From NCBI RefSeq assembly GCF_958415495.1, contig NZ_CATZLL010000010.1, positions 101,267-165,266 of the forward strand: a stretch of DNA of 64,000 nt. The letters run 5' to 3'. The position numbers and the translations under genes are program-made. Origin of the DNA: Ralstonia flaminis. Its GTDB lineage: Bacteria; Pseudomonadota; Gammaproteobacteria; Burkholderiales; Burkholderiaceae. The notes beneath the pieces were generated by a model. That model searched no databases. It was given only the letters and a program-made list of their open reading frames with translations, and was not told where the DNA came from. Below are positions 36,384-54,876 of this stretch, in pieces (position 1 is the first letter of the stretch; each line of letters opens with the position of its first letter).

Positions 36384-36391
36384 GGGGCCTC

Positions 36392-37627: not shown

Positions 37628-37846
37628 TTACGCATGGTTGCCCTTTGCGCCCGCGGCACGCACGAACTTGTACACAGCGTTTTCCCCCTTGTACTCCGGA
37701 CCCTCCACGGCTGCCGTGGTGAGTTCGGGATACTGGGCGGTGTACATGTCGCGCACTTGGTCCGGAGTGAACTGCGTTCCCGGATCGGCAAGCGTCATGC
37801 CGTTGTAGGAAAACTCGCGCTTGACCGTGTTGATGGTGATAGCCAT
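37628..37846 (-). CDS. PRTRC system protein C (ThiS/MoaD-like ubiquitin-like protein), 72 aa
   Basis: 72-aa acidic protein in the expected cassette position. Confidence 0.5.
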   Translation of the reverse strand: MAITINTVKREFSYNGMTLADPGTQFTPDQVRDMYTAQYPELTTAAVEGPEYKGENAVYKFVRAAGAKGNHA

Positions 37847-37855
37847 GGCTTCTCC

Positions 37856-38341: not shown

Positions 38342-40050
38342 AGGGATTTCCTTGAAAATGAATGGGATGGGGAAGCGAGGCGTGGTCGGAACTTCAAGAC
38401 CTTGGGCACCTTGCCCGTGTAGTCAAACCCGTCTACCTTGAGGAGGGCCTCAATGACTTCGAGCTTCGATTGGTTGAACAGCTTGGAAAAGCGATCGCCG
38501 AGCGCGTTGCGCATGCCCAGCTCGTCGGCGAGAGCCTTCAACTCCGATTTGGTCAGGAGTTCCAGAAAATCCTTGGATTTCTGAAGGTTCCAGTGCTTGG
38601 TCAGGTCGAGCGCGTGGTACTTGCAGAGCGACGTCAAGACAGGCACATCGATTCCTTCGATCGCGGCAAGCGCGAGCGAGATCGTCAGATTGAGCCGCTT
38701 GTCAGTAGCCAGGCCGGCCACAGAGATAAGGTTCTTCGAGAGATCGGTGGGAGAGCTGGTCTCGTCCGCGATCCGTTCAAAGAGCGTCCCCATCTTGTCG
38801 CTGGTGATGGTGCGTGCATGACCGGACAGCGAAAGTGCGAGGAGATAGTGGTTGGCCGTTGCTTCGTTGGCCGCCACCTCCCGGCGTAGCGCCTTGCGCC
38901 ACACCCCTTGTCGGTAGGTCTTCACCTTGTCCGACTCGGCAATCGACGTGGCCGCGTGTTCGGCCTTTCCGCCCTTGTCCGCGCCCTCCTTGGCCGGCGC
39001 GGCTTTGGGGCCCTTAACAGTAGACGGCGCTTCAGCGCGCTCGGCCTTGATCCTCGCTGCAACCTTCTTGGCATTGCAGGACGGATCAAAACACTGACCA
39101 CGGAAGACCTTGCCCAGGCTGTCCGGCAGACCACTCACCGCGGCGCCGAAATTCTGGCAGCCGTGACATGCTTTCGCCTGTTCGGCACCGACTCCCGTCG
39201 GTCCCTCCACCTGCAATTGCACGCGCGTGTGGTTGTCGCCAGCGCGGACGATACGGATAACCGGGTATTCGTCCTTCAGGCCGTACGAGATACCTTCCAG
39301 CTGCGTCTCGGTCTTGCCCTTGTAGCAGGTCGGGTTGGTACAGCTACCGGAGGAAATCGCCTCGGAAAACATCACCGACTGCAATTCCGAGTTGTGCGCG
39401 CATGTCGCACACTCGCTCTTGTCGAAGATCGCGTCCTTCAGGTTGCAGGCAGCTTGTTCGATGGCCTTCTTGAGGTCCGCCACCGTCTTTTTCTCTTGCA
39501 GAATGATCGGCAAGAACAGGTCCTGCTTTTCCTTCGTCAGGGTCGCAAGCAGCTCGGCATGCCCAAGCTGGATGGAACGCGTGTTCAGCGCGTCCAGCAC
39601 CGCAGGACTGCAGTTCATTAGCGCCAGCCGGCGGTCGAGGGTCGATCGCGGCCAGCCGAGTTGGCGGGCAGCTTCATCGCGGTCACCTTTCAGGTCCCCA
39701 ACGATGTCCGCGGCCGCAACGGCTTCTTCAGACGGCGCCATGTCGGCGCGCTGAACGTTCTCGATGAGCGCCAGCCGGCGCGCTTCCCCTTCCGTCATCT
39801 CACGGATGACAACGGGCATGTCGTAATCGTCACCGCAGGCAGCTTTCGCCCCACGGTACCGGCGCTCGCCAGCGACCAGTTCGTAGGTGCCGTCCTCAAG
39901 AGGGCGCACCAGTACAGGTTGAATTACGCCATCCTCACGGATGGACTCCGTGATCTCCGCCATTTTCGCGGGATCGAAGTACTTCCGGGGGTTCTTGCCC
40001 GGCCGGATTTGGCCGAGTTTGACGGTGACGCTCTGTTGGTTTTCTTGCAT
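38314..40050 (-). CDS. PRTRC-associated ParB-family protein, ~579 aa (start MQENQQS with GGAGA RBS; track ORF extends to 40206)
   Basis: N-terminal ParB/Srx nuclease-like domain with GERRYRGA and QPVLVRP motifs. Large C-terminal extension. Confidence 0.65.
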   Translation of the reverse strand: MQENQQSVTVKLGQIRPGKNPRKYFDPAKMAEITESIREDGVIQPVLVRPLEDGTYELVAGERRYRGAKAACGDDYDMPVVIREMTEGEARRLALIENVQRADMAPSEEAVAAADIVGDLKGDRDEAARQLGWPRSTLDRRLALMNCSPAVLDALNTRSIQLGHAELLATLTKEKQDLFLPIILQEKKTVADLKKAIEQAACNLKDAIFDKSECATCAHNSELQSVMFSEAISSGSCTNPTCYKGKTETQLEGISYGLKDEYPVIRIVRAGDNHTRVQLQVEGPTGVGAEQAKACHGCQNFGAAVSGLPDSLGKVFRGQCFDPSCNAKKVAARIKAERAEAPSTVKGPKAAPAKEGADKGGKAEHAATSIAESDKVKTYRQGVWRKALRREVAANEATANHYLLALSLSGHARTITSDKMGTLFERIADETSSPTDLSKNLISVAGLATDKRLNLTISLALAAIEGIDVPVLTSLCKYHALDLTKHWNLQKSKDFLELLTKSELKALADELGMRNALGDRFSKLFNQSKLEVIEALLKVDGFDYTGKVPKVLKFRPRLASPSHSFSRKSLCFKNWCRS

Positions 40051-40093
40051 TTGTGGGTTCTCCAGGGATGGAAAAGGGGAACCCGTTGCCGCA

Positions 40094-40111
40094 CCGGGAA
40101 CAGGTTCCCGA
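40094..40111. promoter_or_regulatory. 18-bp near-palindrome CCGGGAACAGGTTCCCGA (44-61 bp upstream of the ParB start), followed by ATGGGATGGAAAATGAAAG
   Basis: Read directly. Same family as 33072 and 33954. Confidence 0.5.
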
Positions 40112-40194
40112 TGGGATGGAAAATGAAAGCGAGGGCCACCGAACCGCTGGCCCTCGGACAACCGCGAGACGCTGCGCGTCCTGCGATCAGGAGA

Positions 40195-40214
40195 TCGATG
40201 CGTCAAAGACGCGG
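40195..40214 (+). repeat. 22-mer family copy g: TCGATGCGTCAAAGACGCGG, 83 bp to the right of palindrome m2, upstream of the ParB/PRTRC operon
   Basis: Read directly. Confidence 0.6.
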
Positions 40215-41249: not shown

Positions 41250-41620
41250 TGCAGAGCCCCAACTCGCACATTGAAGCGCTGGTTCAGCGATGCGCAAAAG
41301 GCATCCATGTCGGGGACCGCGCCAATAGCCAGAGCGGCTTTGATGTCGGCTTCAGCGACCCGGAGTTCCGATTCCACATCGATAGTCGATGCCACACTAG
41401 TCGAAGCATTGCTGCGCACAGTCTCCACAACAGCACGTGCAATTCGCACACAGAACAGCTCGAACTCGTGTGTTACCTCAGCTTCTTTCCTGATCCGCGT
41501 TGCACGCAACGATGGATCGAGGATTGGCAAGGCCTCCTGTTCGAAACGAGCCACCACCAGGTAGCTTTCGAAGGCTTTGAGCTGTGCTTCTTTGAAACGC
41601 TGAATAACGGCGTTGAACAT
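41246..41620 (-). CDS. Hypothetical protein, 124 aa, translationally coupled to the methyltransferase gene
   Basis: Track ORF; its stop overlaps the MTase start. Confidence 0.45.
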   Translation of the reverse strand: MFNAVIQRFKEAQLKAFESYLVVARFEQEALPILDPSLRATRIRKEAEVTHEFELFCVRIARAVVETVRSNASTSVASTIDVESELRVAEADIKAALAIGAVPDMDAFCASLNQRFNVRVGALQ

Positions 41621-41883
41621 GGAACGTCTCCAGAAAATGGACGAGAGACGTCCCTGCTGGGACGGCTCCCAGCGGGGAAGAAGATGGAACGACCTGACCG
41701 ACCAGCGCTAACGAATCGGCGTGCGTAGGCACACCGCGACGTAGCGAAGTTCGCTCAGGTGTTCAAGGGAAAGACCGGCCGCAGAATGCGAACGATAGGC
41801 CGACACGTGCAGTGTCGGAGATGAAACCGGACCCTACAGCTGTGGGGGAAACAAGATGTAGGCCGCCCAGATGGCGGTCAAAA

Positions 41884-41903
41884 TCGATGCGTCGTAGACG
41901 CGG
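41884..41903 (+). repeat. 22-mer family copy d: TCGATGCGTCGTAGACGCGG (identical to copy a)
   Basis: Intergenic, between 41620 and 41972. Confidence 0.6.
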
Positions 41904-41971
41904 CAAACCGTTTCAGAATATCGCAGTTGCTCTGCATTTTCCAGCAGCTGCGCGCACGCGCGCCCAGCCCG

Positions 41972-42460
41972 CTACCACCTTCCTGGCATCGGCCGCGTCA
42001 TTGCAGCGCTCCGCAAGCGATTGACGACGGCCCAGCGATAGTGGTCCTTCTCCTCTGGTTCTTGCATCCCTGAGAAGTCTGGCATCAACCCCGCCAGCAG
42101 GCCCGGTGCGTCCTCACGAAGCACGCCGTCAGCGATGAGCTTGTTGCGTAGTAGCTTGGAGACGCTCCAGCCAATCTCCTTGAACGCCACATAGTCCCAA
42201 CGAGCTGGAATGAGGTCCTCGCTGAACCACGCTTCGCCGCCGTGCCCAACAACCCCCACCACAGTGTGGTGTATGCCTTGCGAATCCGAATGCACGCGCG
42301 CCTCGAACCGCAGCACATGCGGCTCCGGGAACCAGAAGACGCGATCCAGCATGCGCGCGAAGGCCTGCGCCTCAATGCTGGCCAGTGCCTGGTCTTCAGC
42401 CTCCCCAAACTGGGAGCAGGGTTCGGCCTTTGGGCGGCCGCCTATTTCAACTTCTCGCAT
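41972..42460 (-). CDS. Hypothetical protein, 162 aa
   Basis: Track ORF. Confidence 0.4.
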   Translation of the reverse strand: MREVEIGGRPKAEPCSQFGEAEDQALASIEAQAFARMLDRVFWFPEPHVLRFEARVHSDSQGIHHTVVGVVGHGGEAWFSEDLIPARWDYVAFKEIGWSVSKLLRNKLIADGVLREDAPGLLAGLMPDFSGMQEPEEKDHYRWAVVNRLRSAAMTRPMPGRW

Positions 42461-42632
42461 GTCGTGTGCTGTGGTGTGGGAATGCGGCGAAAGCCCACGC
42501 GAATATCGAGCTTTTGCTTGATTCGATCGTCGTTGCCCGCCCCAAAATCGTACCGGCCAGTTCGCTCAACCGGCGCCATTGACTTCGCAGCCATGCCGGT
42601 AACTTGGAACCATATCCCGATGGTTTTCCGAC

Positions 42633-43067
42633 ATGCGCTTCACACGTTATCTCCGTTACTACCCGATCGATTTTACCTCGCGCCGCGAGGCCGCTTTCGC
42701 TCGCAAGCAGGCCCGCGAGCGTGCGCGCTATCCCCTGTTTCCCGAGCACATAGCCGAGTCACAACGCACCGTCGCTGACGAAATCGCCCTGCGCCAGCGT
42801 CGTTCCGACAGTCTGGAGCTGCGTATGCGCGCGCTCCAGGCCAAACACTGGCGCAAAGGTCGCAGCATGTACTTCGCCCAACCGGCGGCCGTTCGTGCCC
42901 ACATCCAGGAAGCGTGGCGAGCATGGCGTGGCCCCACCACTCCCAACAACTTCATCTATGTAGTTGAGCAGCAAACCGGCGAGGGCGAGCGCCGCCGTGC
43001 GGCGATCCGGGAGAGGGATGCGGCGTTTCGCGCGTCTCTCGTTGACACACAACTGACCCTCGCCTGA
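42633..43067 (+). CDS. Hypothetical basic protein, 144 aa; first gene of an 8-gene plus-strand operon
   Basis: Track ORF. Its stop is 1 bp before the helicase ATG (TGAcATG). Confidence 0.45.
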   Translation: MRFTRYLRYYPIDFTSRREAAFARKQARERARYPLFPEHIAESQRTVADEIALRQRRSDSLELRMRALQAKHWRKGRSMYFAQPAAVRAHIQEAWRAWRGPTTPNNFIYVVEQQTGEGERRRAAIRERDAAFRASLVDTQLTLA

Positions 43068-43068
43068 C

Positions 43069-44529
43069 ATGCAGCCTACCGAAGAGCAAACCGCTGTCGT
43101 TGATGCGTCCTTGGATGGCGAACCGTTGAAGGTTGACGCTCGTGCGGGCGCCGGCAAGACCTCCACCCTAGGCCTCGTCTCGACCGCCAAAGGGCGGGCT
43201 CGTGGTGTCTATTTGGCCTTCAATCGCCTCATTGCGGAGGAGGCCAAGCGCAAGTTCCCTTTGTCCGTGCGGTGCGGAACGGTCAACTCCCAGGCATACA
43301 GATCCGTATCGGCCGACATCACCCGGAAGCTCCGTAATCCGTTGGAGCCCAACTACCTCCTCGCAGAGCGATTCGGCCTACAGCCTATCAAGGTCCCGAC
43401 AACGATCGGGAAGAACCTTGAACTGACCTCCGCCAAGCTTGGCCGGATGGTGCGAGACGGCTTGGCCAGGTTCTGTGGCTCTGCCAAGCCGACGCCGCTC
43501 GATTGGCACATCCCGGTCGATCCGCTGATCACCGAGCAAGCGGCTGAAGCGCTACGCCATGCGCTGCTGCCTTCGGTCGTCAAGCTCTGGGAGGAATCAC
43601 AAAACCCCCAATCCCCGGGCGCTATCTCCCACGACGTGTACGTCAAGCTGTGGCAGTTGAGCCGGCCGACCATCCCTGCCGACTACATCCTATTCGATGA
43701 GTCGCAAGACGCAAACGGCCTGATGCTTTCGGTGCTTCGACGCCAATCGGCCCAGGTGATCTATGTCGGCGACCCGTACCAACAGATCTACGAGTGGCGC
43801 GGTGCCGTCAACGCGATGGACCACATCAAGGCGCAGAAGCGTGCGCTGACGCTGTCCTTCCGCTTTGGCGAGCCGATCGCTGCGCTGGCGACCCGCATCC
43901 TGCGCACGATGGACGAGGAAGTGCCCGTCAGGGGCCAGGCCAGCATTGCATCGCGTATCCACAAGGACATCTCGCCGAGCGAGCTGAAGGTCAACGCCGT
44001 GCTTTGCCGCAAGAATGCAACGGTGCTGTCCTATGTCGCCGATGGTCTCCAACGCGGCGAAAAGGTCGCGATCCGCGCCAATATCCGCGACATCATGGCC
44101 TTCCTGGACGGCGCCGAACGGCTGATGTGCGGCCAGCGGACCGACTATCCGACCGCGCTATCCCTGTTCGCCAACTGGTCGGAGGTGCAGGACTACGCCG
44201 ACTCGTTTGCCGGGCGAGACCTGAAGCCGTTCGTCAAGCTGATCGACGATGAAGGCATCCCCTACGTCCGCCAGCTGCTTAGCACTGTCAGCCCAGAGTC
44301 CGAAGCCGATTACGTGGTCTCGACCATCCATCAGGTCAAGGGCCTTGAGTACGACTCGGTCCGCATTGCCGGCGACTTCAGGTTCAAGACGGACGACGAC
44401 GGCAAGTACACGATGGACACGGAAGAGAAGCGCCTCCTCTATGTCGCACTCACGCGCGCCAAGCGCAACCTGGACATCACTGCCATCCAAGTTGACATGC
44501 ACAGAATGTTCCGGGATGCCGGGGTGTAA
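43069..44529 (+). CDS. UvrD/Rep/PcrA-like superfamily-1 helicase, compact 486-aa form
   Basis: Walker A AGAGKTST, motif II ILFDESQDAN, motif VI-region VSTIHQVKGLEYDSV, and the C-terminal LLYVALTRAKRNL typical of UvrD-family helicases. Confidence 0.7.
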   Translation: MQPTEEQTAVVDASLDGEPLKVDARAGAGKTSTLGLVSTAKGRARGVYLAFNRLIAEEAKRKFPLSVRCGTVNSQAYRSVSADITRKLRNPLEPNYLLAERFGLQPIKVPTTIGKNLELTSAKLGRMVRDGLARFCGSAKPTPLDWHIPVDPLITEQAAEALRHALLPSVVKLWEESQNPQSPGAISHDVYVKLWQLSRPTIPADYILFDESQDANGLMLSVLRRQSAQVIYVGDPYQQIYEWRGAVNAMDHIKAQKRALTLSFRFGEPIAALATRILRTMDEEVPVRGQASIASRIHKDISPSELKVNAVLCRKNATVLSYVADGLQRGEKVAIRANIRDIMAFLDGAERLMCGQRTDYPTALSLFANWSEVQDYADSFAGRDLKPFVKLIDDEGIPYVRQLLSTVSPESEADYVVSTIHQVKGLEYDSVRIAGDFRFKTDDDGKYTMDTEEKRLLYVALTRAKRNLDITAIQVDMHRMFRDAGV

Positions 44530-44540
44530 AGGGGCACACC

Positions 44541-45761
44541 ATGATCAAGATCCGGATCGGCCCGTCCGACTTCGACCTTGCTGAGGTGCTGGAGAACCCG
44601 GGCCGCTACACAACCCAGCTCGAGCGCGCCAAGCGAATTCAAGGGTTCGCCGAGTGCGGCTGCACAGAGCATGCCCCTCGGCCGAAGCTCGTCATCCGGC
44701 GCCTCCGGTCGGCGTTCATCCTGGCGCGCTGGCCAGATGCCAACTACAAGCATCGTCAGGGGTGCCCGTTTCAGGAACGCAAAGGCCACGCCACGGCGAC
44801 GGCAAGAACCAAGGGCCCATTCCAAACCCGGAACGGCAAGCACCTCATTCAGCTTGATCTGTCCTTGGAGGTTACACAGCCCGGCACCGGCCAGCCTGGC
44901 CCGCGATCACCCCAGGCCTCCAGTGCGCCGCGAGCGCATCGCCGATCGGCACCTCTCCTCGCATTTCTCGAATACGCCTGGGAGGCGGCTGGATTGCACG
45001 CGTGGGCCGATCAGGGATACCGCGGTTGGAATGCATGCTGGTCCATGCTCAGTGCCGAGTTCGCCGACGCGAAAATCAACGGCCGCCCGGCAGCCGATGT
45101 GCTGCACATCATGCGCAGGTGGGACCCGGAACATAAGGCCGAGATCCTTGCCGAGTTCGATGCATTCGTCGCGCGGCTGACCACTGCTGGCACCACGACG
45201 CACCGGGGGCTGATCATCGGCGAGGTCGGCGAGTTCAAACCGAGCGCTCACGGCGGCATGCTGGTGCTGCGCCAAAGCCACCAGCGGTATTTCATGTCCA
45301 ATGCGCTGTTTCAGAAGGTCTCACGCTCCTACGCGACTGCGCTGGCCGGTCTCGGCCGCAAGGATTTGCGGAGCGTGGCGGTCCTGGCCGTCGAGAAGAC
45401 CGCCAATGGCTACTTGCACGTCGCCGACATGGCAGCCATGTTGACCAACTCGTCCTTCCTGCCATGCGACTCGTCGCACGAGGCAGTCATGGCCGACCAC
45501 CTGATTCGCCTGCAGCGCAGGTTCGAGAAGCCACTGCGCCATGTGGGCGCCGCCGCAGTCCACCCGGACTTCGAGTTAAAGGATGTCGACCAGCGCACCG
45601 TTATCGAAGTGCTCGGCATGACCGGCAACCGCGAGTACGACCGGCGGATGCAGGAAAAGCGCGAGTACTACGCGACCAACGGTATCCGGTTGGTCGAATG
45701 GAACCCGAACAAACACCCCGTAGCGGACACCCGCCTCCCGCCGACACATCGAGACCGGTGA
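44541..45761 (+). CDS. Hypothetical protein, 406 aa; N-terminal Cys/His cluster (CGCTEH...C), possible DUF1173-type
   Basis: Track ORF. The C-terminal region PDFELKDVD...VIEVLG is weakly PD-(D/E)xK-like (speculative). Confidence 0.5.
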   Translation: MIKIRIGPSDFDLAEVLENPGRYTTQLERAKRIQGFAECGCTEHAPRPKLVIRRLRSAFILARWPDANYKHRQGCPFQERKGHATATARTKGPFQTRNGKHLIQLDLSLEVTQPGTGQPGPRSPQASSAPRAHRRSAPLLAFLEYAWEAAGLHAWADQGYRGWNACWSMLSAEFADAKINGRPAADVLHIMRRWDPEHKAEILAEFDAFVARLTTAGTTTHRGLIIGEVGEFKPSAHGGMLVLRQSHQRYFMSNALFQKVSRSYATALAGLGRKDLRSVAVLAVEKTANGYLHVADMAAMLTNSSFLPCDSSHEAVMADHLIRLQRRFEKPLRHVGAAAVHPDFELKDVDQRTVIEVLGMTGNREYDRRMQEKREYYATNGIRLVEWNPNKHPVADTRLPPTHRDR

Positions 45762-47128
45762 TGAAGACTCCACTGAACCGCTCTGCCGATGGCGCACGCA
45801 TGCAACCAGGCGCCCCGCTCAGCTCACTCAAGTCGCCGGCGATGACCGGTAACATCGTCAACAAGGAACCCCCCATGCAAGACACGCAATGCTTGGCAAT
45901 TCGTGATTGGCTGTTTGACCAGCATGACAGGGTGACCGGCACCGCACGCCTGTTCCGTTACGTGGCCGTTGTTCCGAACGACAGCGATGTCAAAAGCGCG
46001 ACGGTCCACTATGCATTGGCGCGCCCGGTTCCGATTACCGGCACGTTCGCTGCCGAGCCCGACGACATCGTGCGCGAGCTGCTGGCCCAATCGCCTTTCC
46101 GGTCCGCCGAATTGCACCTTGCAGAGCACGACGTGCTCAAGGACAGCTGGCCGGTCAAGTGGGGCCTGACTGCCAAGGACAGCCTCTCGAACTGGCCGGT
46201 GCTGGTGCTGAGCGAGCGGGACGACAAGAGCGTGTACGGGGTCGTCATGCGCTCGCCCAACCTCGAAAGCAATGCTCTTCGTTTTGCGTCGCTCTATTGC
46301 GACCCGGAAGAGGTAGGGCTGATCCTGGATCTCTTGATGCTCATGCAGCCCGACGATGCGTTCCTGGGCTGGTTCAAGGAGTCAGAGATTGCGGCAAGCG
46401 ACCTCGAACAGGCGCTCGCGGCCACTCCGCAAACGGATGCAGGCCAAAAATTCGTTTTGCTGTATCGCACGGACGAATGGCTGTCCGGCATCTGGAATGC
46501 AGATCGGCCCATCGTCGAGCGCATCAACCTGACGAGCCTGGCTGATTTCCACGGCATTCCGGTCTCACTGGCCAAGAAGCGCCGGCGCGCTGACCTCGAG
46601 CAGGCCTGCGACAACCAGACGGTCACGGGTGACTATGACGCACTGGTGAAGGCACTCACAGCCGCCGGCGGCGAGATGCCCAGTCGTGGCAGCGACTACG
46701 AGGCTGACCCGGCCGTGCGCGTTCTATGCGATTGGTGGAACGGCGCGGCACCCGACGGCATGCGCCACGCCGGCGCGCTTCGCATCTACGTCTGGTCCGA
46801 CGAGCGGCGCGTTTTCCTCCCAGGCGATCCCGAGGAGCCGGGCCTGCCGGCCGATGTGCTGGCGACTCAACCCACCTATGCACTGTTTCAGGAGCCCGGC
46901 AAACCCACCGTGGCAGTCGTCTTTTTGCGTGGGCGCGAGCACAACGTGGCGCTGCCCAACGGGTCGACCCAGATCCAGTTTGCCAACGGCAATCCCTGCT
47001 ACGTAATTGCGCTTCCGATATCCGTGGCCAATGAGGCCTTCTACTCGGCTCAGGGGTTGCGCGCGGTGCGCCGCTTCATGGTGACACGCGTGCCAGCGCT
47101 GGCCGCCGGCGACCTGCAGGTGGCCTGA
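45761..47128 (+). CDS. Hypothetical protein, ~455 aa (start overlaps previous stop: GTGATGA)
   Basis: In-frame internal start of track ORF 45464..47128, chosen to remove the 300-bp overlap with the upstream gene. Confidence 0.45.
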   Translation: MKTPLNRSADGARMQPGAPLSSLKSPAMTGNIVNKEPPMQDTQCLAIRDWLFDQHDRVTGTARLFRYVAVVPNDSDVKSATVHYALARPVPITGTFAAEPDDIVRELLAQSPFRSAELHLAEHDVLKDSWPVKWGLTAKDSLSNWPVLVLSERDDKSVYGVVMRSPNLESNALRFASLYCDPEEVGLILDLLMLMQPDDAFLGWFKESEIAASDLEQALAATPQTDAGQKFVLLYRTDEWLSGIWNADRPIVERINLTSLADFHGIPVSLAKKRRRADLEQACDNQTVTGDYDALVKALTAAGGEMPSRGSDYEADPAVRVLCDWWNGAAPDGMRHAGALRIYVWSDERRVFLPGDPEEPGLPADVLATQPTYALFQEPGKPTVAVVFLRGREHNVALPNGSTQIQFANGNPCYVIALPISVANEAFYSAQGLRAVRRFMVTRVPALAAGDLQVA

Positions 47129-47167
47129 ACGACTGACTCCCGGGCGTACACGACATCGGAGGATGGA

Positions 47168-47938
47168 ATGGCAGAGCAATTGATCGACGCAGCGCAAAGC
47201 ACGCTGGCCAAGGCGCTGTCGGCACTGAGCCGTCGTGCCGACCGGGTGCACTCACAGCTCTGTGCTGCGCAGCGTATTCGCACGGCCTATCTCGCCGCGC
47301 AGGTCGGCATATTGGTGCCGGCCGTCTCTCGGTCGGTTGTTCGTTCGCTTCAGGTCAGGCTCCCCGCATTCATGACCTCCGACGTCATCGCGGAATTCCA
47401 CCGCGGGCGCAAATTCCTTGCGGTGTTTCCCCGCAAGCAAACCCGTGAGTCGCTGTCGATCCTCCAATACGCGCTTACGGCGTATCTCAGTCAGATCCGC
47501 TACCAGGAATTGAAGGAATTCGACGCTGAAATTGCCCACCTGCGGGCCTACCTCACTGACTTGGAACGCGCACGTGAGCAAGCGTCAGACCTTCTGCGGG
47601 TGCTCCAGGTGGTGCAGGATCGCGCCGCACCGGTTCCCTCCGAAGCGCAGCCGCTACTGGCTCGGATGGCTGGCGCTGGGGATCGACATTGCCGGCGCTC
47701 GAACGCCGGCACCGACGGTCGGCGCCGCGCGGCCAGTGCATTGGATGATCAAGACACGAACCTATGCGCGTTCGTGTTGGCAGAACTTCCCTCTCGTTTG
47801 GGGGAGCTTCTGACGCGCGACAAATCGGCGGCCTTCGACGCGTCGACCGAACGCCCTCGCGCTGGGCCGACCACTGGCTCGCCACGTTTGCCTGTTCCGG
47901 CACTCGACACGCTTGACGCGCAACTCGCGACGGCATGA
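47168..47938 (+). CDS. Hypothetical protein, 256 aa
   Basis: Track ORF. Confidence 0.4.
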   Translation: MAEQLIDAAQSTLAKALSALSRRADRVHSQLCAAQRIRTAYLAAQVGILVPAVSRSVVRSLQVRLPAFMTSDVIAEFHRGRKFLAVFPRKQTRESLSILQYALTAYLSQIRYQELKEFDAEIAHLRAYLTDLERAREQASDLLRVLQVVQDRAAPVPSEAQPLLARMAGAGDRHCRRSNAGTDGRRRAASALDDQDTNLCAFVLAELPSRLGELLTRDKSAAFDASTERPRAGPTTGSPRLPVPALDTLDAQLATA

Positions 47939-48033
47939 CCACCGAGCGGCTGGTGCCATCCCTTGACTTTGTACTGGGCTGGCTACGCTGATCTGAATCC
48001 ATTGCCACCCGAGGCCAGCCGCCTCGCACACAA

Positions 48034-49947
48034 TTGACGATGAACACCTCCGCATCCTCCAGCCCTGCAGTCGCATGCGGTCCCGATGGCCGCGCCCGCG
48101 CGAACGCCACGCTCACCATGGCGAAATGGATTCTGCTCAGCAGAGACCGCACCCTCGATCATGCTTGCGTCGAATGCGTGCCAGATGGCGCACTCGTTGT
48201 GCCAGGCTTTCGTTGCGGCTACCACTCCGCGCTGAATGCGGTGACCGCCGTAGATGATGCTGACCGACAGGAACCAGCGTACGCGCCGGTGCAAGCGGTG
48301 GTCGACCAGTTTGTGTCCGGATACCAGCTACACGGCACGCTGGGGTCCCATGTCCCGACTCCACGGGAACGCGGGCTGATTGCCAACGCAATCGCTGGCC
48401 TGCTCGCCGACACGGTCTTCCTTCGAGAGTTCGACAAATGGCGGCGTGCCGACGCCCCGCAAGCCAGCATGCCACCCGCGGCAGCAGTTCCCGCGGACTG
48501 TGCCGGTGCCGGTGAACCCTCCACCCTTCGCAACATGTTGGCCGCCATCAGGGTCGTCGGCCAGATTGACGGCCACGATGTGATACGTCGCCTGTCCATG
48601 CTGGACCTTGTGGACCGCGAGAGGCGCGCAGCCGAGGAAGAGGCGCCAGCTGGCGCCATCGCCTTGTCCGATGCGCATGCGAAAGGCGTCATGGACGCGC
48701 TGCGCGGCGTTCACGAGCTGTTTGTCCATGAGGACGGTTGCGGTGCCTTGCCTCCTGACAGCCCATTTCAGAATGGGGACCAGCCGTTCGGCCGGACCTC
48801 AAGAAAACCACAGCGAACAAGCGCAATGCTGAGCGAAAAACATCACAACCCGCATAGGAGCGGCACGGAAGCCTATCTTGCAACCGAGCACCACAACGAA
48901 GGCTGGAACGGAGCATTGGCCGCCGTCCGCAAAGTCCTGGGCAGTAGTCTGGCGGCGGCGATCCACTACCCGGGCTGCTGGGACACAGCGGCATATCCGA
49001 CGATCGAAAGCGCACTGGCCGAGATGGGCGAGGAGTTTCAGTGCACGAACGATGATTGCCCCCACCACTCCGACCTACAGCAGGGCGAGCCGAGGGCGTT
49101 CGACGTGGCTGTGAGCGGATACAAAGTATTGCTGGTACGCACGCGCAGTGAAGCAGACGACACCGCGAAGCATTTCCGAGGCCGTGGCTGTGAAGTCGAG
49201 GTGTACCCCTTGTACGGTGGCCAGCGGTTCCATACCTTGAAGGCCACCGACTTCTACGAGCTTGATCCGGACCGCAACGGCGAGCCCGGTACCGAGCCGG
49301 CACGCAACGTCACGCACCTAATGCCGGAGCCGTGGCCACCGGCGTTGAGTGGCGCCCCTGTCGTTCCGGCGACGCTGGAGGTTGACAATGCCGCGCTGGC
49401 TGCCGAGATCGACTGGTGTCTCGACGAAGGCCATTGCGGACCCCGCACCCGCGCTGTGCTGCAGCGAATCCGCGATCATCAAACTGCGGGCATTACACCG
49501 GCGCGGCGCCCCATGCTGCTCATCACCCTCCGCCAGGCCGAGAGCCTGCAGCAGTTCTTCGGTGGTCACGACGCAGAGGTCGCCGTTGTGCCCTACAAGG
49601 ACGGACTGCTCGCCTGGGACGTCGAGTGCCCCGGCGAGGGCTCTCAGTGGCTGGGGCCAACGGCGGTGGATGACGAGCTGGCCGACAAGGGCCGGCCGGA
49701 CACGTCACGGCCCGCGATCTGGAAAACGACGCATCCCGCTGTGTGCGTGCCCATCACCGACAGCAAGGCGATCGCCGACGACTGGAAGGAGCATGGCTAC
49801 GACGTGGTCGAGTTCTACCCAGGACCCCAGGAGCTGCGATTGTGCGCTGACGGAGTCGGCACGGCCAACGCTGACGCCGATGGCCACACAGTTTTGCGCG
49901 ATACGCCCGGTGCTGCGTCGATTGACGCAGACGAGGGCCCACGCTGA
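48034..49947 (+). CDS. Hypothetical protein, 637 aa (Cys/His-rich segments CTNDDCPHH, CLDEGHC; no recognised domain)
   Basis: Track ORF. Confidence 0.5.
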   Translation: MTMNTSASSSPAVACGPDGRARANATLTMAKWILLSRDRTLDHACVECVPDGALVVPGFRCGYHSALNAVTAVDDADRQEPAYAPVQAVVDQFVSGYQLHGTLGSHVPTPRERGLIANAIAGLLADTVFLREFDKWRRADAPQASMPPAAAVPADCAGAGEPSTLRNMLAAIRVVGQIDGHDVIRRLSMLDLVDRERRAAEEEAPAGAIALSDAHAKGVMDALRGVHELFVHEDGCGALPPDSPFQNGDQPFGRTSRKPQRTSAMLSEKHHNPHRSGTEAYLATEHHNEGWNGALAAVRKVLGSSLAAAIHYPGCWDTAAYPTIESALAEMGEEFQCTNDDCPHHSDLQQGEPRAFDVAVSGYKVLLVRTRSEADDTAKHFRGRGCEVEVYPLYGGQRFHTLKATDFYELDPDRNGEPGTEPARNVTHLMPEPWPPALSGAPVVPATLEVDNAALAAEIDWCLDEGHCGPRTRAVLQRIRDHQTAGITPARRPMLLITLRQAESLQQFFGGHDAEVAVVPYKDGLLAWDVECPGEGSQWLGPTAVDDELADKGRPDTSRPAIWKTTHPAVCVPITDSKAIADDWKEHGYDVVEFYPGPQELRLCADGVGTANADADGHTVLRDTPGAASIDADEGPR

Positions 49948-50279
49948 TGTGGGGGTTCCATATACACCTGGACATCGAGGGCTTCGTGCGGAGCAGCACG
50001 TACCCGGACGACTACATTGGCCTCTTCCGTGATGCCACCGGGCGCTCGCTCACGCCAGCCGAGGCGCGCACCAAGCTGACGATCGACAAGGCAAGGGGCC
50101 ACAAGGTACTCCCGATGAGCAAGGAATGCGGCGCCGCGCTGTGCCCACACGCAACCGATGGTTGCTCCGGCTTCGACTATTCGGGCGGTGGGTGTCCAGG
50201 CTACCAACGAGGCAATGGCAAGGCCGCTCCACACAGCACAGCAACGACGACGGAGGTCAACGATGCAGCAGACGAATGA
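49947..50279 (+). CDS. Hypothetical protein, 110 aa (start overlaps previous stop, GCTGATG)
   Basis: Track ORF. Confidence 0.35.
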   Translation: MWGFHIHLDIEGFVRSSTYPDDYIGLFRDATGRSLTPAEARTKLTIDKARGHKVLPMSKECGAALCPHATDGCSGFDYSGGGCPGYQRGNGKAAPHSTATTTEVNDAADE

Positions 50280-51126
50280 GAACGCTTCCCCGGCAACAAC
50301 TCAACACGAAGCCATGACGCTGCTTGCCGACCTCGTTCTTTCAGTGCAATGGTGGGCGGGCCAGGAAGACGGCATTCCGGATACCGTCCGCCCCGCCTTT
50401 GACCGGGCTCAGAAGGCTCTTGGCTGGCCACAAGGGGAATCGACCACCACGCCGGCGGCAACGGCAATGCCCGAGGCGCCATGTGCGAGTTGCCACGGCT
50501 TCGGTAGCGAGCTGACGGTGTACAAAGGCAAGGTTCCCTGCCGGGCATGCCAGAAATCCAACAATGCCGCGCCATGGCTACCTCCCGGCTGGGAAATCAG
50601 TGTGGCCGATGACGACGGCTCCACCTGGGTGACACTGCGCCGCTGCACTTCGGATCGCAAGGTGCTCGCCCAGTCGGTCTACGCGCACAAGCGGGGATCT
50701 CTGGATTCGCATGTTTGGCATGCACTGCGCCATTCTCTCGACATCACGCGCCCTCAGATCGCAGAGCTCGACCACTGGCGAGCCCGGGCACTGAATGCAG
50801 AGCAACTGCTCAACAGCCCCGAGCTGCATGACTTTGCCCGCGGGGTCGTGCAAGAAGCCGCCCACCAGCGCCAGCGTTGGGGAACTGCCAAGGACGCCGA
50901 CAAGTCGCCAGCGGACTGGGTCTTTCTCGTTGGCCACCTCGAAACCCGCTCCATGATGTACCTGCAGGCCGGCAACGTTGACAAGGCGCTGCATCACACG
51001 ATCACGACCGCTGCGGCACTCGCCAACTGGCACACGAACATTTCCGGAGCGGATAGCAGCATGTGGCCCAGCCTTCCCGGCCAGCCACATGCCAGCGCCC
51101 CGGTGGGCGGCGGCGGCCATGCGTGA
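50263..51126 (+). CDS. Hypothetical protein, ~287 aa with CxxC..CxxC zinc-ribbon-like segment (CASCHGFGSELTVYKGKVPCRAC)
   Basis: Internal start MQQTNEN of track ORF 50158..51126. Overlaps the upstream gene end by 17 bp. Confidence 0.4.
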   Translation: MQQTNENASPATTQHEAMTLLADLVLSVQWWAGQEDGIPDTVRPAFDRAQKALGWPQGESTTTPAATAMPEAPCASCHGFGSELTVYKGKVPCRACQKSNNAAPWLPPGWEISVADDDGSTWVTLRRCTSDRKVLAQSVYAHKRGSLDSHVWHALRHSLDITRPQIAELDHWRARALNAEQLLNSPELHDFARGVVQEAAHQRQRWGTAKDADKSPADWVFLVGHLETRSMMYLQAGNVDKALHHTITTAAALANWHTNISGADSSMWPSLPGQPHASAPVGGGGHA

Positions 51127-51759
51127 GCACGTCAACCTCCGCAGCATCTTCAGTGGTCGCAGCCCGACGACCGGCCTTCCCTTCGCCGAACGCCACAGGT
51201 AGAGCGGTAGCGCCTGGGGCAAAGCAGCCTGCGAGCTTCGCTGCCGGATGCTCGACCAGTTGCTCAAACCCGCGGCGCCGTCCACGTCGCCTCGCTGACT
51301 TGATCCCGCACAACAGCAACAATCGGCACGCACAATGAACATACATTCTGGTGCCGCCCAGCTATTCTCCGCATTATCTCCAGCCATTCCTCAAAAGCGC
51401 AGTGAGGAAGTTGGCCTTTACCAAATAACGTAGTACATGCCCCCAGCAGATCTCTCCTCCGAATTTCCCCACCCTGAAACGATCATCGCCGTGCGCGGCG
51501 CCCTGTCCATCGGCCTCCAGCAGGGGCCAGACAGCCCAGGAGGCCACTGGCTGCACGAGTTCTGGGCGTTCGGCCGCGCCCGCGCCGAGGCTGAAGCCAT
51601 CATCCAAGGCTTCATGGAAAGCGCCGCCATCAGGATTTTGGCGACGTCTCACGCATATTTTGGAGCCGCTGCAACATAAACCCGTCTGCAGTGGTGGTTC
51701 AACAAACTCGGCGACAGGCATAATCCGGACTTAAAATCCAATCATCGAGACCCAACGGT

Positions 51760-52332
51760 ATGTTTGACGATCTGATCGGCTGTGGTCACTGCGGCGGACG
51801 GGCCAGGTTCTTCGCTGGCCGAAAGGAGGCCGTCATTGTGTGTACACAGTGCGGCATTGGCACGCCGCCCGTGCAAATCGGAACCTCCAAAGAAGCGGCC
51901 TACGACGAGCTGGCTTTGATCTGGAACCGACGCGTCGAGTATCGCCCAACCGATCAACACGAGCTGGCCTCGATCGCGCGTCGCCAATTGACGCCGGTGG
52001 ACATCCCAATGCTGCTGGACGCGATCGCCCGCAATGCCATGGATTGGGAAACCCGCGGACCGATATTCGCGGCAATGGCCGCCCAGCTCAGCAGGCCCGC
52101 TTCCCCCGCCGCCGCGGAAGTACCAATGGCCACCGTCCTTGAAGACGCCGGCCGGTATCGCAAGCTCGTGCGATTGGCCAAGGTCATCTACGTCGATGGC
52201 CGTCCCTGGATCCGCTTCGAACCACTCGACGCGTTCGACGCCGAACTGGTTGAAGGCGAAGAAAATGCCTTCGCGCGCATGGACGTATTCGTCGCGCGTG
52301 CGGTGGATGCCCTGGAGCCTCAGCTCGACTAG
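51760..52332 (+). CDS. Lar-family (restriction-alleviation-like) zinc-ribbon protein with C-terminal extension, 190 aa
   Basis: N-terminal CGHCGG ... CTQCG double CxxC spacing, characteristic of Lar-like proteins. Confidence 0.4.
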   Translation: MFDDLIGCGHCGGRARFFAGRKEAVIVCTQCGIGTPPVQIGTSKEAAYDELALIWNRRVEYRPTDQHELASIARRQLTPVDIPMLLDAIARNAMDWETRGPIFAAMAAQLSRPASPAAAEVPMATVLEDAGRYRKLVRLAKVIYVDGRPWIRFEPLDAFDAELVEGEENAFARMDVFVARAVDALEPQLD

Positions 52333-52573
52333 CGCCCCTCGCCACCATGATCGCGCGATCGGCGAGGCGCTGACCTTCCAACTGACGATGGCGTCGACGC
52401 GCGGTAGATGACCGTGCGGTAACGGCCATGCTTTGGCCGGCCGGATCTCGTTCCGTGCCCAGCACTCCCAAACCCTTCACGCAAATCGGCCCGCAGAAGC
52501 TCTCGCTTTCGGGTACTTGACATTGCCCGTTACAAGGCACGATGGATCTAGGTCAACCCGGATCCCAACTGCC

Positions 52574-53491
52574 GTGCTCAAAAAAACCCTGCTCTTCGTT
52601 GCCCTCTCTGCATTCCTCCAGGTCGCCGGCGCCTCTCCCGATCACTGCGGCGCATCGGTCGCGGACGGCGCGCAACCGAAGGTGCTGTCCAGCAAGCACG
52701 CTGGCGCCAGCCACCTGCTCTGCTACCGCGCCTACGCGGTGCTCGTGTCCTCGGCGACCCGGACACCGCTGTGGTCAGCCGAACACCTGACCGCGCAGGC
52801 GGTGAACCAGGCGCGTGAGCTGCCGCGCGAAAGCGATTTCTTCGAAGAGACGTCTTTGCCGGCAACCGCCCGCGCCACCCTGCAGGACTACCACGGTAGC
52901 TCGCACGTCCAGATTGACCGTGGCCACATGTCGCCAAGCGGGGACTTCGGCGACCTGGCATCGCAACAGGAAAGTTTCAGCTTGGCCAACGTCGTCCCGC
53001 AGAACTCGGTCAGCAACCGCCGCATGTGGAGCCACCTGGAGACGTCGACCCGCCGCCTGGTACGGCAGACCGGCGAAGCCTACGTGGTGACCGGCCCAGC
53101 ATTCACGGACGGCAAGGCCCGTTACCTCAACGAACATGTACGGGTACCCGACTATCTGTGGAAAGCGATCTACGTCCCGGGCGTCGGCGCAGCAGCCTAC
53201 ATCGCACCCAACGATGCCACGCCGAAATATGCGGTGGTCAGCATCGCCAAACTCGCACAATTCACCGGCGTCGACCCGTTCCCCCGGCTGCCGGCCGCGA
53301 CGCGCGATCAGGCGATGGAGTTGCCGCCGCCCACCCCGCATCCGCACGAGAAGGCTGGTCGGCAGACCACCCTCAACGATCTCTTGAGCCGCGCGCCGGC
53401 AGCGGAGGTGGAAGATGTCGGACCGACTGCCGTGGCCCGCGTTCCCAACGTATGGCGGCTGGCCCGCGCAATCAGCGCCGCCGTTCGCTAA
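52574..53491 (+). CDS. Secreted DNA/RNA non-specific endonuclease (Serratia NucA / EndoG beta-beta-alpha-Me family), ~305 aa
   Basis: Signal peptide KKTLLFVALSAFLQVAGA, active-site DRGHM motif and a downstream Asn (VVPQNSVSN). GTG start chosen within track ORF 52433..53491. Confidence 0.6.
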   Translation: MLKKTLLFVALSAFLQVAGASPDHCGASVADGAQPKVLSSKHAGASHLLCYRAYAVLVSSATRTPLWSAEHLTAQAVNQARELPRESDFFEETSLPATARATLQDYHGSSHVQIDRGHMSPSGDFGDLASQQESFSLANVVPQNSVSNRRMWSHLETSTRRLVRQTGEAYVVTGPAFTDGKARYLNEHVRVPDYLWKAIYVPGVGAAAYIAPNDATPKYAVVSIAKLAQFTGVDPFPRLPAATRDQAMELPPPTPHPHEKAGRQTTLNDLLSRAPAAEVEDVGPTAVARVPNVWRLARAISAAVR

Positions 53492-53516
53492 GATGGAATC
53501 TAAATGGAGGCATCCC

Positions 53517-53639
53517 ATGAAAGCCCAACAACCGTACGGATCTCCCCAAACCCTGGGCCGTCGTGTCAGCTTCTGGCTGATCGCTGTGGCCGTCGCGCTG
53601 TACCTTTCCTACATCGCCGGGACCAGCCCGCCGTTCTAA
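53517..53639 (+). CDS. Small membrane protein, 40 aa (MKAQQPYGSPQTLGRRVSFWLIAVAVALYLSYIAGTSPPF)
   Basis: GGAGG RBS 6 bp upstream; followed by a terminator. Confidence 0.35.
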   Translation: MKAQQPYGSPQTLGRRVSFWLIAVAVALYLSYIAGTSPPF

Positions 53640-53659
53640 CCCGCCGACCAATCCCGCAA

Positions 53660-53694
53660 AAGCCGCCACACCGTTGGCGGCTTTTGCGTTATTT
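53660..53694 (+). terminator. Intrinsic terminator (AGCCGCCA-CACCG-TTGGCGGCT then TTTTGCGTTATTT)
   Basis: 8-bp GC stem followed by a T-rich tract. Confidence 0.55.
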
Positions 53695-53718
53695 GTCCTG
53701 AACGCGTCTAGCGCGCGA

Positions 53719-54876
53719 TCAGTTCTTCGTTGGGTCGGCCGCGCCCGATGAGCACGAACGCCCAAGCATTCCGCAAACCCGGGCGAGCAGCTCTGCGAGT
53801 CGCGATCGCACAACCGGGGCCGGGCCGGCACCGGCACCGGCACCGGCATGTGCGTCCATAGCAGCTCTGGCCGAGATCTTGTAGGCGAGTATCTCGCCCG
53901 ACGTGATCAACCGCTGAGCCTCTCGGTCAGCCTCTTCGGCGCACTCGATGTACCGGAGCTCTCCTGCAGCCCATTCCACTCTCACTTCGTCGCGCTCCCA
54001 GCAATTGCCGTGCACCCGACGATGAAAGCGCACCCAAGGGAGGTCGACGTAACCAAGATGCCCATACAGGCGCCGCCACGCAGGTGCGCTGCCCGGCCAA
54101 CACGCATCGAGTGGCCAGTGCCAGAAGAACTCGGGGTCGCCAAGTTCTGGCCGGTACATCCAGACGTGTGGCGCGTGGCTGAACCGCCCTTCCTTCCACC
54201 ATTGCTTCAGCAGATCCCACCCGGCACGATTCGTCGGCACACTGAAGTTGAGAGACCACTCCGGCGTAGGCGCCTCCTCGAATGGAATCCCATCTTGGGA
54301 CGCGCCGTGGATCTGACAGTGGCAGCACCCCGCTGCGGCAAGTGCGTCCCGCATACGCACAACTTCGGCCCCACTGGGGCTGATGCTCCTGCGCTCACCA
54401 TCCGATGTCCGCAGGCCCCAGCCAATGCTGACAGTCACCCCCTCTAACGAGAGGGAGAGCGGTAGCCGGCCGCCGTCCATCACCGTCCGAATTGCCTGGA
54501 GGATGTCCACCCCGAGTTTCGCGGCGTGCGCCCGCCGAAGCCGATCCTCCTCGATCTCGCGAAGCCGCCGAGCTTGGTTGGCCGTGACTTCCGCTGGGCT
54601 CAGCGGCCACCGCAGGAAGCGGAGCGCTGCGCGCCATTGCGGCGAGATAGCAGCCCCACGAGCCAGCAGCAAATCGCGGGCCTGCTCGATCAGGTCTTGA
54701 GCGTGATCGATGGCCACGTCCGTCAACAGGTCGGTGCCGTCAGTCTCCGCGGTCGCGTTTGGCAGGTTCTCTCGGATGAGTGTGTACAGTTCTTCGTCTG
54801 TGCACGCCCGCAGCTCTGGCTCTGGAAACAGGTAGGTATCCCAATCGCCATCGGCCATTGCGTCATCTTCAGTCAT
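53719..54876 (-). CDS. Hypothetical protein, 385 aa, immediately downstream of the integrase gene
   Basis: Track ORF with a Trp/His-rich C-terminal half. Confidence 0.45.
   Translation of the reverse strand: MTEDDAMADGDWDTYLFPEPELRACTDEELYTLIRENLPNATAETDGTDLLTDVAIDHAQDLIEQARDLLLARGAAISPQWRAALRFLRWPLSPAEVTANQARRLREIEEDRLRRAHAAKLGVDILQAIRTVMDGGRLPLSLSLEGVTVSIGWGLRTSDGERRSISPSGAEVVRMRDALAAAGCCHCQIHGASQDGIPFEEAPTPEWSLNFSVPTNRAGWDLLKQWWKEGRFSHAPHVWMYRPELGDPEFFWHWPLDACWPGSAPAWRRLYGHLGYVDLPWVRFHRRVHGNCWERDEVRVEWAAGELRYIECAEEADREAQRLITSGEILAYKISARAAMDAHAGAGAGAGPAPVVRSRLAELLARVCGMLGRSCSSGAADPTKN

Follow-up and report, generated by a model that had tools for sequence, protein, structure and literature searches.

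The 64,000-nucleotide stretch of Ralstonia flaminis analysed here (contig NZ_CATZLL010000010.1, positions 101,267 to 165,266; hereafter the window) carries a plus-strand gene array that includes a compact helicase of the UvrD family and a protein of the family DUF1173, and that had been predicted to be an eight-gene operon and the best local candidate for an undescribed system. Comparison with related loci shows that the block is a mosaic, composed of a conserved head (g1, helicase and DUF1173), a lineage-specific filler slot (g4 to g8) and a conserved restriction-alleviation tail (g9, Lar and an endonuclease), and that there is no eight-gene system. The array sits in the conserved backbone of a conjugative megaplasmid of the pRp12D01/pHG1/pMOL28 type, and we favour, with a probability of about 0.55, the reading that this three-layer mosaic belongs to a plasmid DNA-processing and establishment region and not to host defence. 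The array consists of 11 co-directional genes between 42633 and 53491, not eight:

42633-43067, plus strand: g1, 144 amino acids, arginine-rich
43069-44529, plus strand: helicase, 486 amino acids, compact FBH1-like member of the UvrD family, superfamily 1 (SF1)
44541-45761, plus strand: DUF1173 protein, 406 amino acids
45761-47128, plus strand: g4, 455 amino acids, within an open reading frame (ORF) of 554 amino acids
47168-47938, plus strand: g5, 256 amino acids
48034-49947, plus strand: g6, 637 amino acids from a TTG start; 609 amino acids from 48118 in RefSeq
49947-50279, plus strand: g7, 110 amino acids; 97 in RefSeq
50263-51126, plus strand: g8, 287 amino acids, within an ORF of 322 amino acids
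51127-51436: intergenic stretch of 310 bp, the site of DUF4031 and DUF5131 (Gp37/Gp68) genes in relatives
51437-51679, plus strand: g9, 80 amino acids, conserved, annotated in RefSeq
51760-52332, plus strand: Lar-family restriction alleviation protein, 190 amino acids, annotated in RefSeq
52574-53491, plus strand: DNA/RNA non-specific endonuclease of the secreted type, 305 amino acids, annotated in RefSeq, the last gene of the array

The mosaic came to light when all array proteins were used as queries against 80 bacterial genomic loci that encode relatives of DUF1173, and against plasmid loci. Their arrangements were the following:

about 25 Cupriavidus/Ralstonia loci, including pHG1 and pMOL28: hyp162 on the minus strand, g1, helicase, DUF1173, a variable stretch, g9, Lar, endonuclease
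about 45 Paraburkholderia/Burkholderia/Caballeronia loci: PRTRC, methylase, DUF1173, Lar, with helicase and g1 not alongside, the helicase of pPT365 being 110 kb distant
actinobacterial loci: DUF1173 with none of the above around it

DUF1173 tracks the PRTRC cassette and Lar, not the helicase. In fact, the ParB gene of PRTRC is found upstream of DUF1173 in 48 of 69 loci, and Lar, its most constant downstream partner, follows it in 54 of 65, at a distance that ranges across loci from 0.8 to 7.2 kb; the helicase adjoins DUF1173 in 22 of the 76 informative loci, all of them in the Cupriavidus/Ralstonia clade. Outside Ralstonia, g1, the helicase and DUF1173 are the only ones of the eight genes that co-occur, on Cupriavidus megaplasmids, and on pHG1 and pMOL28 this trio is retained with other genes after it. 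The helicase has been lost, with g1 and DUF1173 retained, in Cupriavidus pinatubonensis (L035), where a remnant of 9% of its length persists, and in Cupriavidus sp. AU9028 (L036). The tail is also shared: g9 has tblastn matches at 35-53% identity beside Lar in about 20 Cupriavidus/Ralstonia loci and matches phrog_16138 (E 1e-6); Lar scores 28.5 bits with the Pfam model Lar_restr_allev, whose cut-off is 28.6, and matches phrog_599; and the endonuclease after Lar is conserved in 18 loci, with Pfam Endonuclease_NS detected on the product of a relative.

The stretch between head and tail behaves differently. No full-length homologue of g4 to g8 was found in the 79 other DUF1173 loci, and the sole match outside Ralstonia, in a Caballeronia locus, is limited to the final third of g8; as a set, the five are confined to Ralstonia relatives, where further genes interrupt them. 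Elsewhere the slot is occupied by other genes:

29 loci: DUF5131 (Gp37/Gp68)
24 loci: a protein of about 150-175 amino acids of no assigned family
20 loci: ParE-like/DUF7682
15 loci: FtsK-gamma-like winged-helix protein
6 loci: orphan N6_N4 methylase

In more distant plasmids, DUF1173 lies beside zeta-toxin-family proteins, a toprim protein, or genes of the ParAB/KorA type. The two diverged Ralstonia relatives (L097 and L098) allow the filler to be followed gene by gene: their first half reads g1, helicase, DUF1173, g4, g5, a gene for 312 amino acids, a gene for 94 amino acids and a gene for 408 or 494 amino acids, and their second half g7, g8, DUF4031, DUF5131, g9, Lar, a helix-turn-helix (HTH) gene and the endonuclease. 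With respect to both, the array of the window has three deletion junctions, at 48789-48794 (402 bp), at 51303-51305 (1.41 kb) and at about 52340 (about 0.3 kb). The 1.41-kb deletion, whose blastn breakpoint is 51303/51305, corresponds to the loss of DUF4031 and DUF5131, and that of about 0.3 kb to the loss of the HTH gene.

The first deletion explains the largest protein of the array. In g6, residues 3-254 align with the N-terminal portion of the product of the 312-amino-acid gene, and residues 265-637 with the separate gene of 408 or 494 amino acids, the junction lying at about 48789-48794. Thus g6 is a lineage-specific chimera of two genes, made by the 402-bp deletion: the ORF for 637 amino acids is present as predicted, and it is a fusion of genes that are separate in relatives, not one gene. 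The 494-amino-acid relative of its second part contains DUF551. All six homologue clusters of g6 are of the Ralstonia type, and it is found in 6 plasmid records. The idea that the eight genes form one helicase-centred system is not borne out, because they fail to co-occur across distinct lineages. The original prediction had also considered that its proteins might be conserved backbone components with known transfer roles; the helicase and DUF1173 do belong to the backbone, and no known role attaches to them.

The individual genes are real. All eight predicted plus-strand ORFs were found at the positions and with the sizes given for them, and the same eight are annotated by RefSeq on identical plasmids. 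GC content at third codon positions (GC3) is 0.69-0.80 across the eight ORFs, in a replicon of 62% GC, and the ratio of nonsynonymous to synonymous substitution rates (dN/dS), taken against L097 and L098, is 0.04-0.59 for every gene, indicating purifying selection; with GC3 in this range and dN/dS below 0.6, all eight are therefore genuine coding genes. The minimum belongs to g1 (0.04-0.08) and the helicase (0.04-0.07), g1 being under the strongest constraint in the array, and the cargo genes lie above them (0.15-0.52). The distances between consecutive genes from g1 to g8 are 1, 11, -1, 39, 95-179, -1 and -17 nt: g1 and the helicase are one base apart (TGAcATG), and overlapping stop and start codons, as had been noted, join DUF1173 to g4 and g6 to g7 (TGATG in both) and g7 to g8 (17 nt). 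A co-directional, tightly packed array containing a UvrD-family helicase is thus confirmed.

Its limits are another matter. The array had been thought to end at 51126, before a non-coding gap of about 630 bp, and instead g9, Lar and the endonuclease follow on the same strand. There is no terminator after 51126; the sole strong one of the region lies beyond the endonuclease, being the top terminator match within 41500-53800, and it was also detected as an inverted repeat (I8). When the eight genes are considered as a single transcription unit, they share the strand and have short or overlapping spacing, and a conserved promoter-like site precedes them, but no terminator was found at their downstream limit. 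Promoter and terminator counts in the region show no excess over shuffled expectation, and Rfam and repeat scans of the region returned nothing relevant within the array. The signals and flanking features are these:

42579-42605, plus strand: candidate promoter, TTGACT at 42579-42584 and TAACTT at 42600-42605, ending 27 nt 5' of the g1 ATG
42487-42517: candidate operator, inverted repeat GCGAAAGC-N15-GCTTTTGC, in the interval that separates g1 (plus strand) from the divergently oriented hyp162 (minus strand)
53655-53688, plus strand: terminator-like hairpin with a 14-bp stem, 9 G-C pairs and a T-rich tail
41972-42460, minus strand: hyp162, 162 amino acids, divergent from g1
34200-40206, minus strand: complete PRTRC cassette

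Both hexamers of the promoter proposed ahead of g1 are present, and their spacer is of 15 nt, not the claimed 17, because of which a sigma-70 consensus scan missed it. The hexamers are found at fixed spacing in 7 Ralstonia/Cupriavidus loci, with TTGAC invariant and TAtCTT conserved; since they are kept amid diverged flanks, a real promoter is supported. Likewise, the AAA and CTTT cores of the inverted repeat are invariant in these 7 loci with diverged flanks. A true promoter with an operator upstream of g1 is plausible on this pattern of conservation, and the repeat may have a regulatory role.

The description of the helicase as an SF1 enzyme with all core motifs, shorter than housekeeping UvrD, proved correct. 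Motifs I to VI are present in the translation (GAGKT, DESQD, GDPYQQIY, SFRFG, TIHQVKGLEYD, VALTRAK), and the Pfam domains PF00580 UvrD-helicase (38.6 bits) and PF13361 UvrD_C (49.3 bits) are both above their cut-offs. It is not an orthologue of UvrD, Rep or PcrA: with the NCBIfam equivalog models, whose cut-offs are 951-1168, its best scores are 47.4 bits for Rep (cut-off 951) and 44.2 for UvrD (cut-off 1144). RefSeq names it a 3'-5' exonuclease, and no exonuclease domain was detected in domain scans. Instead it belongs to a family of mobile elements, matching phrog_1967 ('DNA helicase') with E 8.9e-94 over residues 1-478 (profile positions 151-674 of 776). Full-length relatives were found by tblastn in 1,911 plasmid records, of which 1,233 are typed conjugative, and the family occurs in 300 phage records, many of them large phages of E. 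coli, Pseudomonas and Acinetobacter. Plasmid relatives are also present in Acinetobacter, Vibrio, Providencia, Streptomyces and Thermus; Piscirickettsia alone accounts for 89 of the matching plasmid records. Over about 97% of its length, the helicase of the window is 31% identical to the product of the uvrD-like backbone gene of the IncC plasmid examined and about 23-43% identical to phage homologues; unlike it, those copies are solitary or have other neighbours, g1 and DUF1173 being companions of the helicase only in Ralstonia/Cupriavidus.

Two similarities hint at RecA. FBH1, known from human and fission yeast, is an anti-recombinase of the UvrD family whose target is RAD51, and RecX regulates RecA. 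By sequence, the closest chain in the PDB is human F-box DNA helicase 1 (9xzj_F, E 1.3e-35), UvrD, PcrA and Rep being at about 1e-5; residues 2-319 and a second stretch, 411-471, are aligned, with a common HDxYxKLWQLSxP block after motif Ia. The helicase of the window differs in having neither the F-box nor any other N-terminal region, its residue 2 aligning with residue 369 of FBH1, and a likeness to FBH1 in displacing RAD51 or RecA is something we infer. The second similarity comes from Piscirickettsia plasmids, where the helicase is fused to a C-terminal RecX_HTH3 domain (35.7 bits, cut-off 26); in the P. salmonis plasmid NZ_CP039062 (L103:4001-5863) the protein has 620 amino acids and is annotated as 'RecX family transcriptional regulator'.

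Moreover, the host UvrD is needed in recipients for the conversion of conjugative plasmids from single- to double-stranded form, a need which is relieved by deletion of recA (PMC10085688), and UvrD resolves a structural block in the F leading region (preprint, bioRxiv 10.64898/2026.01.09.698686). The UvrD of E. coli recipients and the helicase of the window are both SF1A proteins of the UvrD family with all ATPase and helicase motifs, and a helicase gene beside SSB, primase and anti-restriction genes on a conjugative plasmid is in a setting where a UvrD-type activity matters; they differ in length (720 and 486 amino acids) and in that the helicase of the window is plasmid-encoded and its activity predicted. 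Taken together, the FBH1, RecX and UvrD observations suggest that the plasmid helicase may be an element-encoded translocase which clears RecA or other obstacles.

The DUF1173 protein matches PF06666 with 124.7 bits (cut-off 25) over residues 24-374. A zinc motif (CxC...H...C) is found at its N-terminus, its middle domain is beta-rich, and its C-terminal domain resembles Vsr nucleases, the predicted model having a predicted local distance difference test score (pLDDT) of 86.9. The nearest structures to the C-terminal domain are the homing endonuclease I-Bth0305I, Vsr, VRR-NUC and DUF559-type endonuclease-like proteins, and its structural neighbours include Holliday-junction resolvases. From the model we are confident that the C-terminus has a restriction-endonuclease-like PD-(D/E)XK fold of the Vsr branch. 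DUF1173 had already been classed as a PD-(D/E)XK relative without active-site signature (Laganeckas et al. 2011, PMC3045609), and the fold seen in the model agrees with this earlier computational assignment (PMC3045609). With respect to the family as it was then classed, D343 and E356 are invariant in the present subfamily, so that some catalytic capacity may remain, and the recurring PRTRC/Lar context is newly added. The canonical lysine position is occupied by L358 (E356-V-L358), K330 and K373 being conserved elsewhere. Profile searches of the PDB with the alignments of g1, DUF1173 and g4 gave no significant match.

Positions 42400-51800 of the window are 100% identical to three Ralstonia megaplasmids of the pRp12D01 type, those of Ralstonia sp. 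RRA.1 (NZ_CP146093), R. pickettii (pRp12D0, NZ_CP104383) and R. insidiosa (CP093305). Upstream of the array, on the minus strand, is the PRTRC cassette, which comprises a ThiF-like E1, PRTRC proteins A, B, F, C and E, and a protein of the ParB family. Its members include ubiquitin-like, E2-like and E1-like (ThiF) proteins and a JAB-type protein A, and in catalogues it figures simply as a mobile-element-associated system. The PRTRC NCBIfam models match none of the eight proteins, and the link of PRTRC to the array is one of association alone, its co-occurrence with DUF1173 and Lar extending across Burkholderiaceae megaplasmids. Next to the cassette come an orphan N6 DNA methylase and two small genes that are conserved; downstream of the array are an integrase, PRTRC protein D, a primase and SSB. 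Elsewhere the plasmid encodes a type IVb pilus with a PilV shufflon, a VirB-type type IV secretion system (T4SS), a TraI-domain relaxase of only about 420 amino acids (13042-14304 of NZ_CP104383), TraD, RepB and ParAB. Genes for FlhD- and FlhC-family regulators lie beside the transfer genes, beyond the window (NZ_CP104383.1, 18541-18885 and 324204-325385); they recall AcaCD and SetCD, the FlhDC-like master activators of MOBH elements.

On the gene structure, synteny, mosaicism, family assignments and folds described above, we propose the following roles, all of them inferred as far as biochemistry is concerned. The array would serve the processing and establishment of plasmid DNA. Its helicase would be a plasmid-borne counterpart of the host UvrD, translocating on single-stranded or replicating plasmid DNA and clearing RecA, possibly also SSB or secondary structures, which would allow synthesis of the complementary strand and avoid recombination or induction of the SOS response. 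Lar and the nearby orphan methylases would blunt restriction, DUF1173 would be a DNA-binding and possibly nicking protein working with PRTRC and Lar rather than with the helicase, and g4 to g8 would be independent cargo. The region resembles leading or establishment regions in that an orphan N6 methylase, Lar, SSB, a primase and a ParB-like protein are found within about 25 kb, together with many small uncharacterised genes and gene-sized insertions and deletions.

Several points weigh against this proposal. Genes around the array are on both strands, unlike those of classic leading regions, and no promoter for single-stranded DNA was identified. The relaxase is about 38 kb from the array, across the pilus and T4SS genes, and the region may not be the one next to the origin of transfer (oriT) that enters the recipient first. 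Since the canonical lysine is absent from DUF1173, it may not cleave DNA. The tight coupling of g1, helicase and DUF1173 in 22 loci could mean that the three act jointly in this clade, and the 80 loci are the best matches to this DUF1173 subfamily, biased towards Burkholderiaceae. The RecX fusion and the similarity to FBH1 argue for RecA clearance indirectly. Literature searches on the plasmid helicase family and on DUF1173 turned up no functional study, and those on PRTRC, on AcaCD with uvrD, and on pVCR94 with helicase gave no functional data on these proteins.

A serious rival, although in our judgement an unlikely one, is that the helicase acts in the donor, perhaps loaded by g1, by unwinding the plasmid at oriT, with DUF1173 as an accessory DNA-binding or nicking factor. 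The small MOBH-type relaxase has no helicase domain of its own, the homologue on an IncC plasmid (MOBH) is encoded between a DNA-binding protein gene and traF, directly upstream of traF-traH-traG, another in Acinetobacter is found within a Dot/Icm-type transfer cluster, and most plasmids of the family are typed conjugative; yet the family is equally at home in large phages, which do not conjugate, and in MOBF/MOBP plasmids, the gene of the window lies far from the relaxase amid methylase, Lar and SSB genes, a second 'ATP-dependent helicase' is encoded near the transfer genes, and two Cupriavidus plasmid loci have lost the helicase. Somewhat more doubtful is a vegetative role in recombination, repair or replication maintenance, independent of conjugation, in which the helicase would clear RecA or obstacles at stalled forks and DUF1173 would process branched DNA. 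The Holliday-junction resolvases and VRR-NUC among the structural neighbours of DUF1173 fit such a role, as do the phage copies annotated as DNA helicase, the SbcCD-like pair with sbcD RNA in the same window, and plasmid pPT365, where the helicase, 110 kb from DUF1173, is beside Ku, LigD and an SOS-response-associated peptidase. This role overlaps with the establishment reading, however, and the most consistent associates of DUF1173 are PRTRC and Lar rather than repair genes, the helicase usually not being adjacent to it.

The original prediction had suggested an undescribed system for either defence or transfer and establishment, noting that short UvrD-like helicases recur in defence systems. 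Of these alternatives, establishment fits the context far better, and we regard as very unlikely an anti-phage or anti-plasmid module in which helicase, DUF1173 and g1 would form an effector similar to Gabija or Nhi, with the downstream genes as sensors or accessories. What speaks for it is the tight coupling in 22 loci, a UvrD-like helicase beside a protein of nuclease fold, partial matches of the helicase to GajB, RT-associated helicase and AbiO models, and matches of the DUF1173 C-terminus to the nuclease ends of the candidate defence proteins PDC-S68 (E 1.4e-9) and HEAT_CxxC_PD-DEXK (E 1.8e-4). The PADLOC matches, however, reflect generic helicase motifs or the nuclease fold: that to GajB is confined to two short stretches (best E 5.9e-18), as against the full-length match to phrog_1967, and no GajA or other partner model was matched. 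In particular, none of the eight proteins matches GajA models, and no GajA, OLD or TOPRIM protein is found in the RefSeq-annotated neighbourhood; the nuclease fold here is Vsr-like and not TOPRIM, and helicase and nuclease-fold protein are not conserved as neighbours. With partners absent and matches only partial, Gabija was rejected along with the other defence systems that contain a helicase, and an obligate helicase-nuclease pair like AddAB/RecBCD was rejected because helicase-DUF1173 adjacency is not conserved. Furthermore, the helicase family is widespread in plasmid backbones and large phages and is no unusual helicase of defence type, the trio is a syntenic backbone under strong purifying selection and not a variable island, the supposed accessories g4 to g8 are not conserved with it, and its neighbours, Lar and orphan methylases, are counter-defence genes. 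A defence system is thus disfavoured by the backbone conservation and strong constraint of the head genes, by the missing PADLOC partner and by the counter-defence neighbours.

Within the establishment reading, a bolder version can be formulated, tentative and rather doubtful as it stands: the FBH1-like family, whose carriers include the clinically important IncC plasmids, would be a mobile-element anti-RecA translocase that frees the element from the host UvrD in the passage from single- to double-stranded DNA and in early replication, and in Ralstonia/Cupriavidus megaplasmids g1 and DUF1173 would have been recruited to it as a three-part machine linked to the ubiquitin-like PRTRC system. The first partner, g1, is confined to Ralstonia/Cupriavidus among the collected loci; it is found in 26 related loci at 43-96% identity and is always directly upstream of the helicase in these genera. 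Among 1.84 billion proteins its family is represented by 219 clusters, whose representatives are mostly of 120-160 amino acids, and a C-terminal DUF3768 is present on some of its proteins (P0143, P0172, P0176, P0202). No Pfam, NCBIfam, PADLOC, PHROG or PDB profile matched g1, and that it is an accessory or loader of the helicase is a guess. An apparent g1-helicase fusion of 634 amino acids in Cupriavidus numazuensis (L033:8084-9985) was rejected, as it results from a frameshift in the 3' part of g1, either a mutation or a sequencing error, with the TGATG junction intact; moreover, none of the 219 representatives is helicase-sized.

The partner proteins had been called unrecognisable and most of them indeed match no characterised family: g4, g5 and g6, like g1, have no match in the Pfam, NCBIfam, PADLOC and PHROG scans, and g7, g8 and g9 match only PHROGs of unassigned function. 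The g4 family is a rare one of betaproteobacterial megaplasmids, with 24 homologue clusters among 5.8 billion proteins and 12 plasmid records; in Ralstonia pB1902, a P. aeruginosa megaplasmid and an Azonexus plasmid the gene is among other small uncharacterised genes, and its homologues occur on other megaplasmids without the helicase, DUF1173 or g5 to g8. Its AlphaFold2 model (pLDDT 85) has no informative match in the PDB or BFVD. The homologues begin at a methionine aligned with residue 46 of the 455-amino-acid product, and judging from this alignment the true start of g4 may lie at about 45896, in which case its start codon would no longer overlap the stop codon of DUF1173. As for g5 (dN/dS 0.24-0.36), it is found in 8 plasmid records, only Ralstonia exceeding 35% identity. 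The g7 protein (dN/dS 0.15-0.25) matches phrog_21034 (E 8.9e-14), a family common to phage proteins. The g8 protein, found in 5 plasmid records, contains a CxxC...CxxC motif (CASC at residue 74, CRAC at residue 93), and its C-terminal 100 residues or so match phrog_25267 (E 7.6e-25), a domain common to phage and plasmid proteins.

PF06666 and phrog_1967 were already catalogued and the locus is in RefSeq; the locus itself is a somewhat decayed plasmid accessory region. Of most interest are the FBH1-like family with its RecX fusion, the association of DUF1173 with PRTRC and Lar, and the conserved trio of g1, helicase and DUF1173. Discarding the eight-gene system spares effort on mostly lineage-specific filler, including a fusion ORF. 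The helicase family, tied to FBH1 and RecX, becomes a testable candidate for the means by which broad-host-range plasmids, IncC resistance plasmids among them, free themselves from host factors, because host UvrD has recently been shown to be necessary for plasmid establishment. DUF1173 gains a confident fold and a reproducible context, with PRTRC upstream and Lar downstream, and the slot between DUF1173 and Lar is a defined place in which to seek new small establishment or counter-defence genes.

Two further elements of the window deserve mention. The divergent gene hyp162, which has no family match in family searches, is kept with the g1-helicase head in Cupriavidus/Ralstonia under dN/dS of 0.07-0.10, and a second paralogue is close by in most Cupriavidus loci. 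Far from the array, at 14651-14798 on the minus strand, an sbcD RNA (Rfam RF01757) was detected with 139.7 bits against a gathering score of 40, upstream of plasmid-borne genes for an SbcD-like 'DNA repair exonuclease' and an SbcC-like AAA ATPase.

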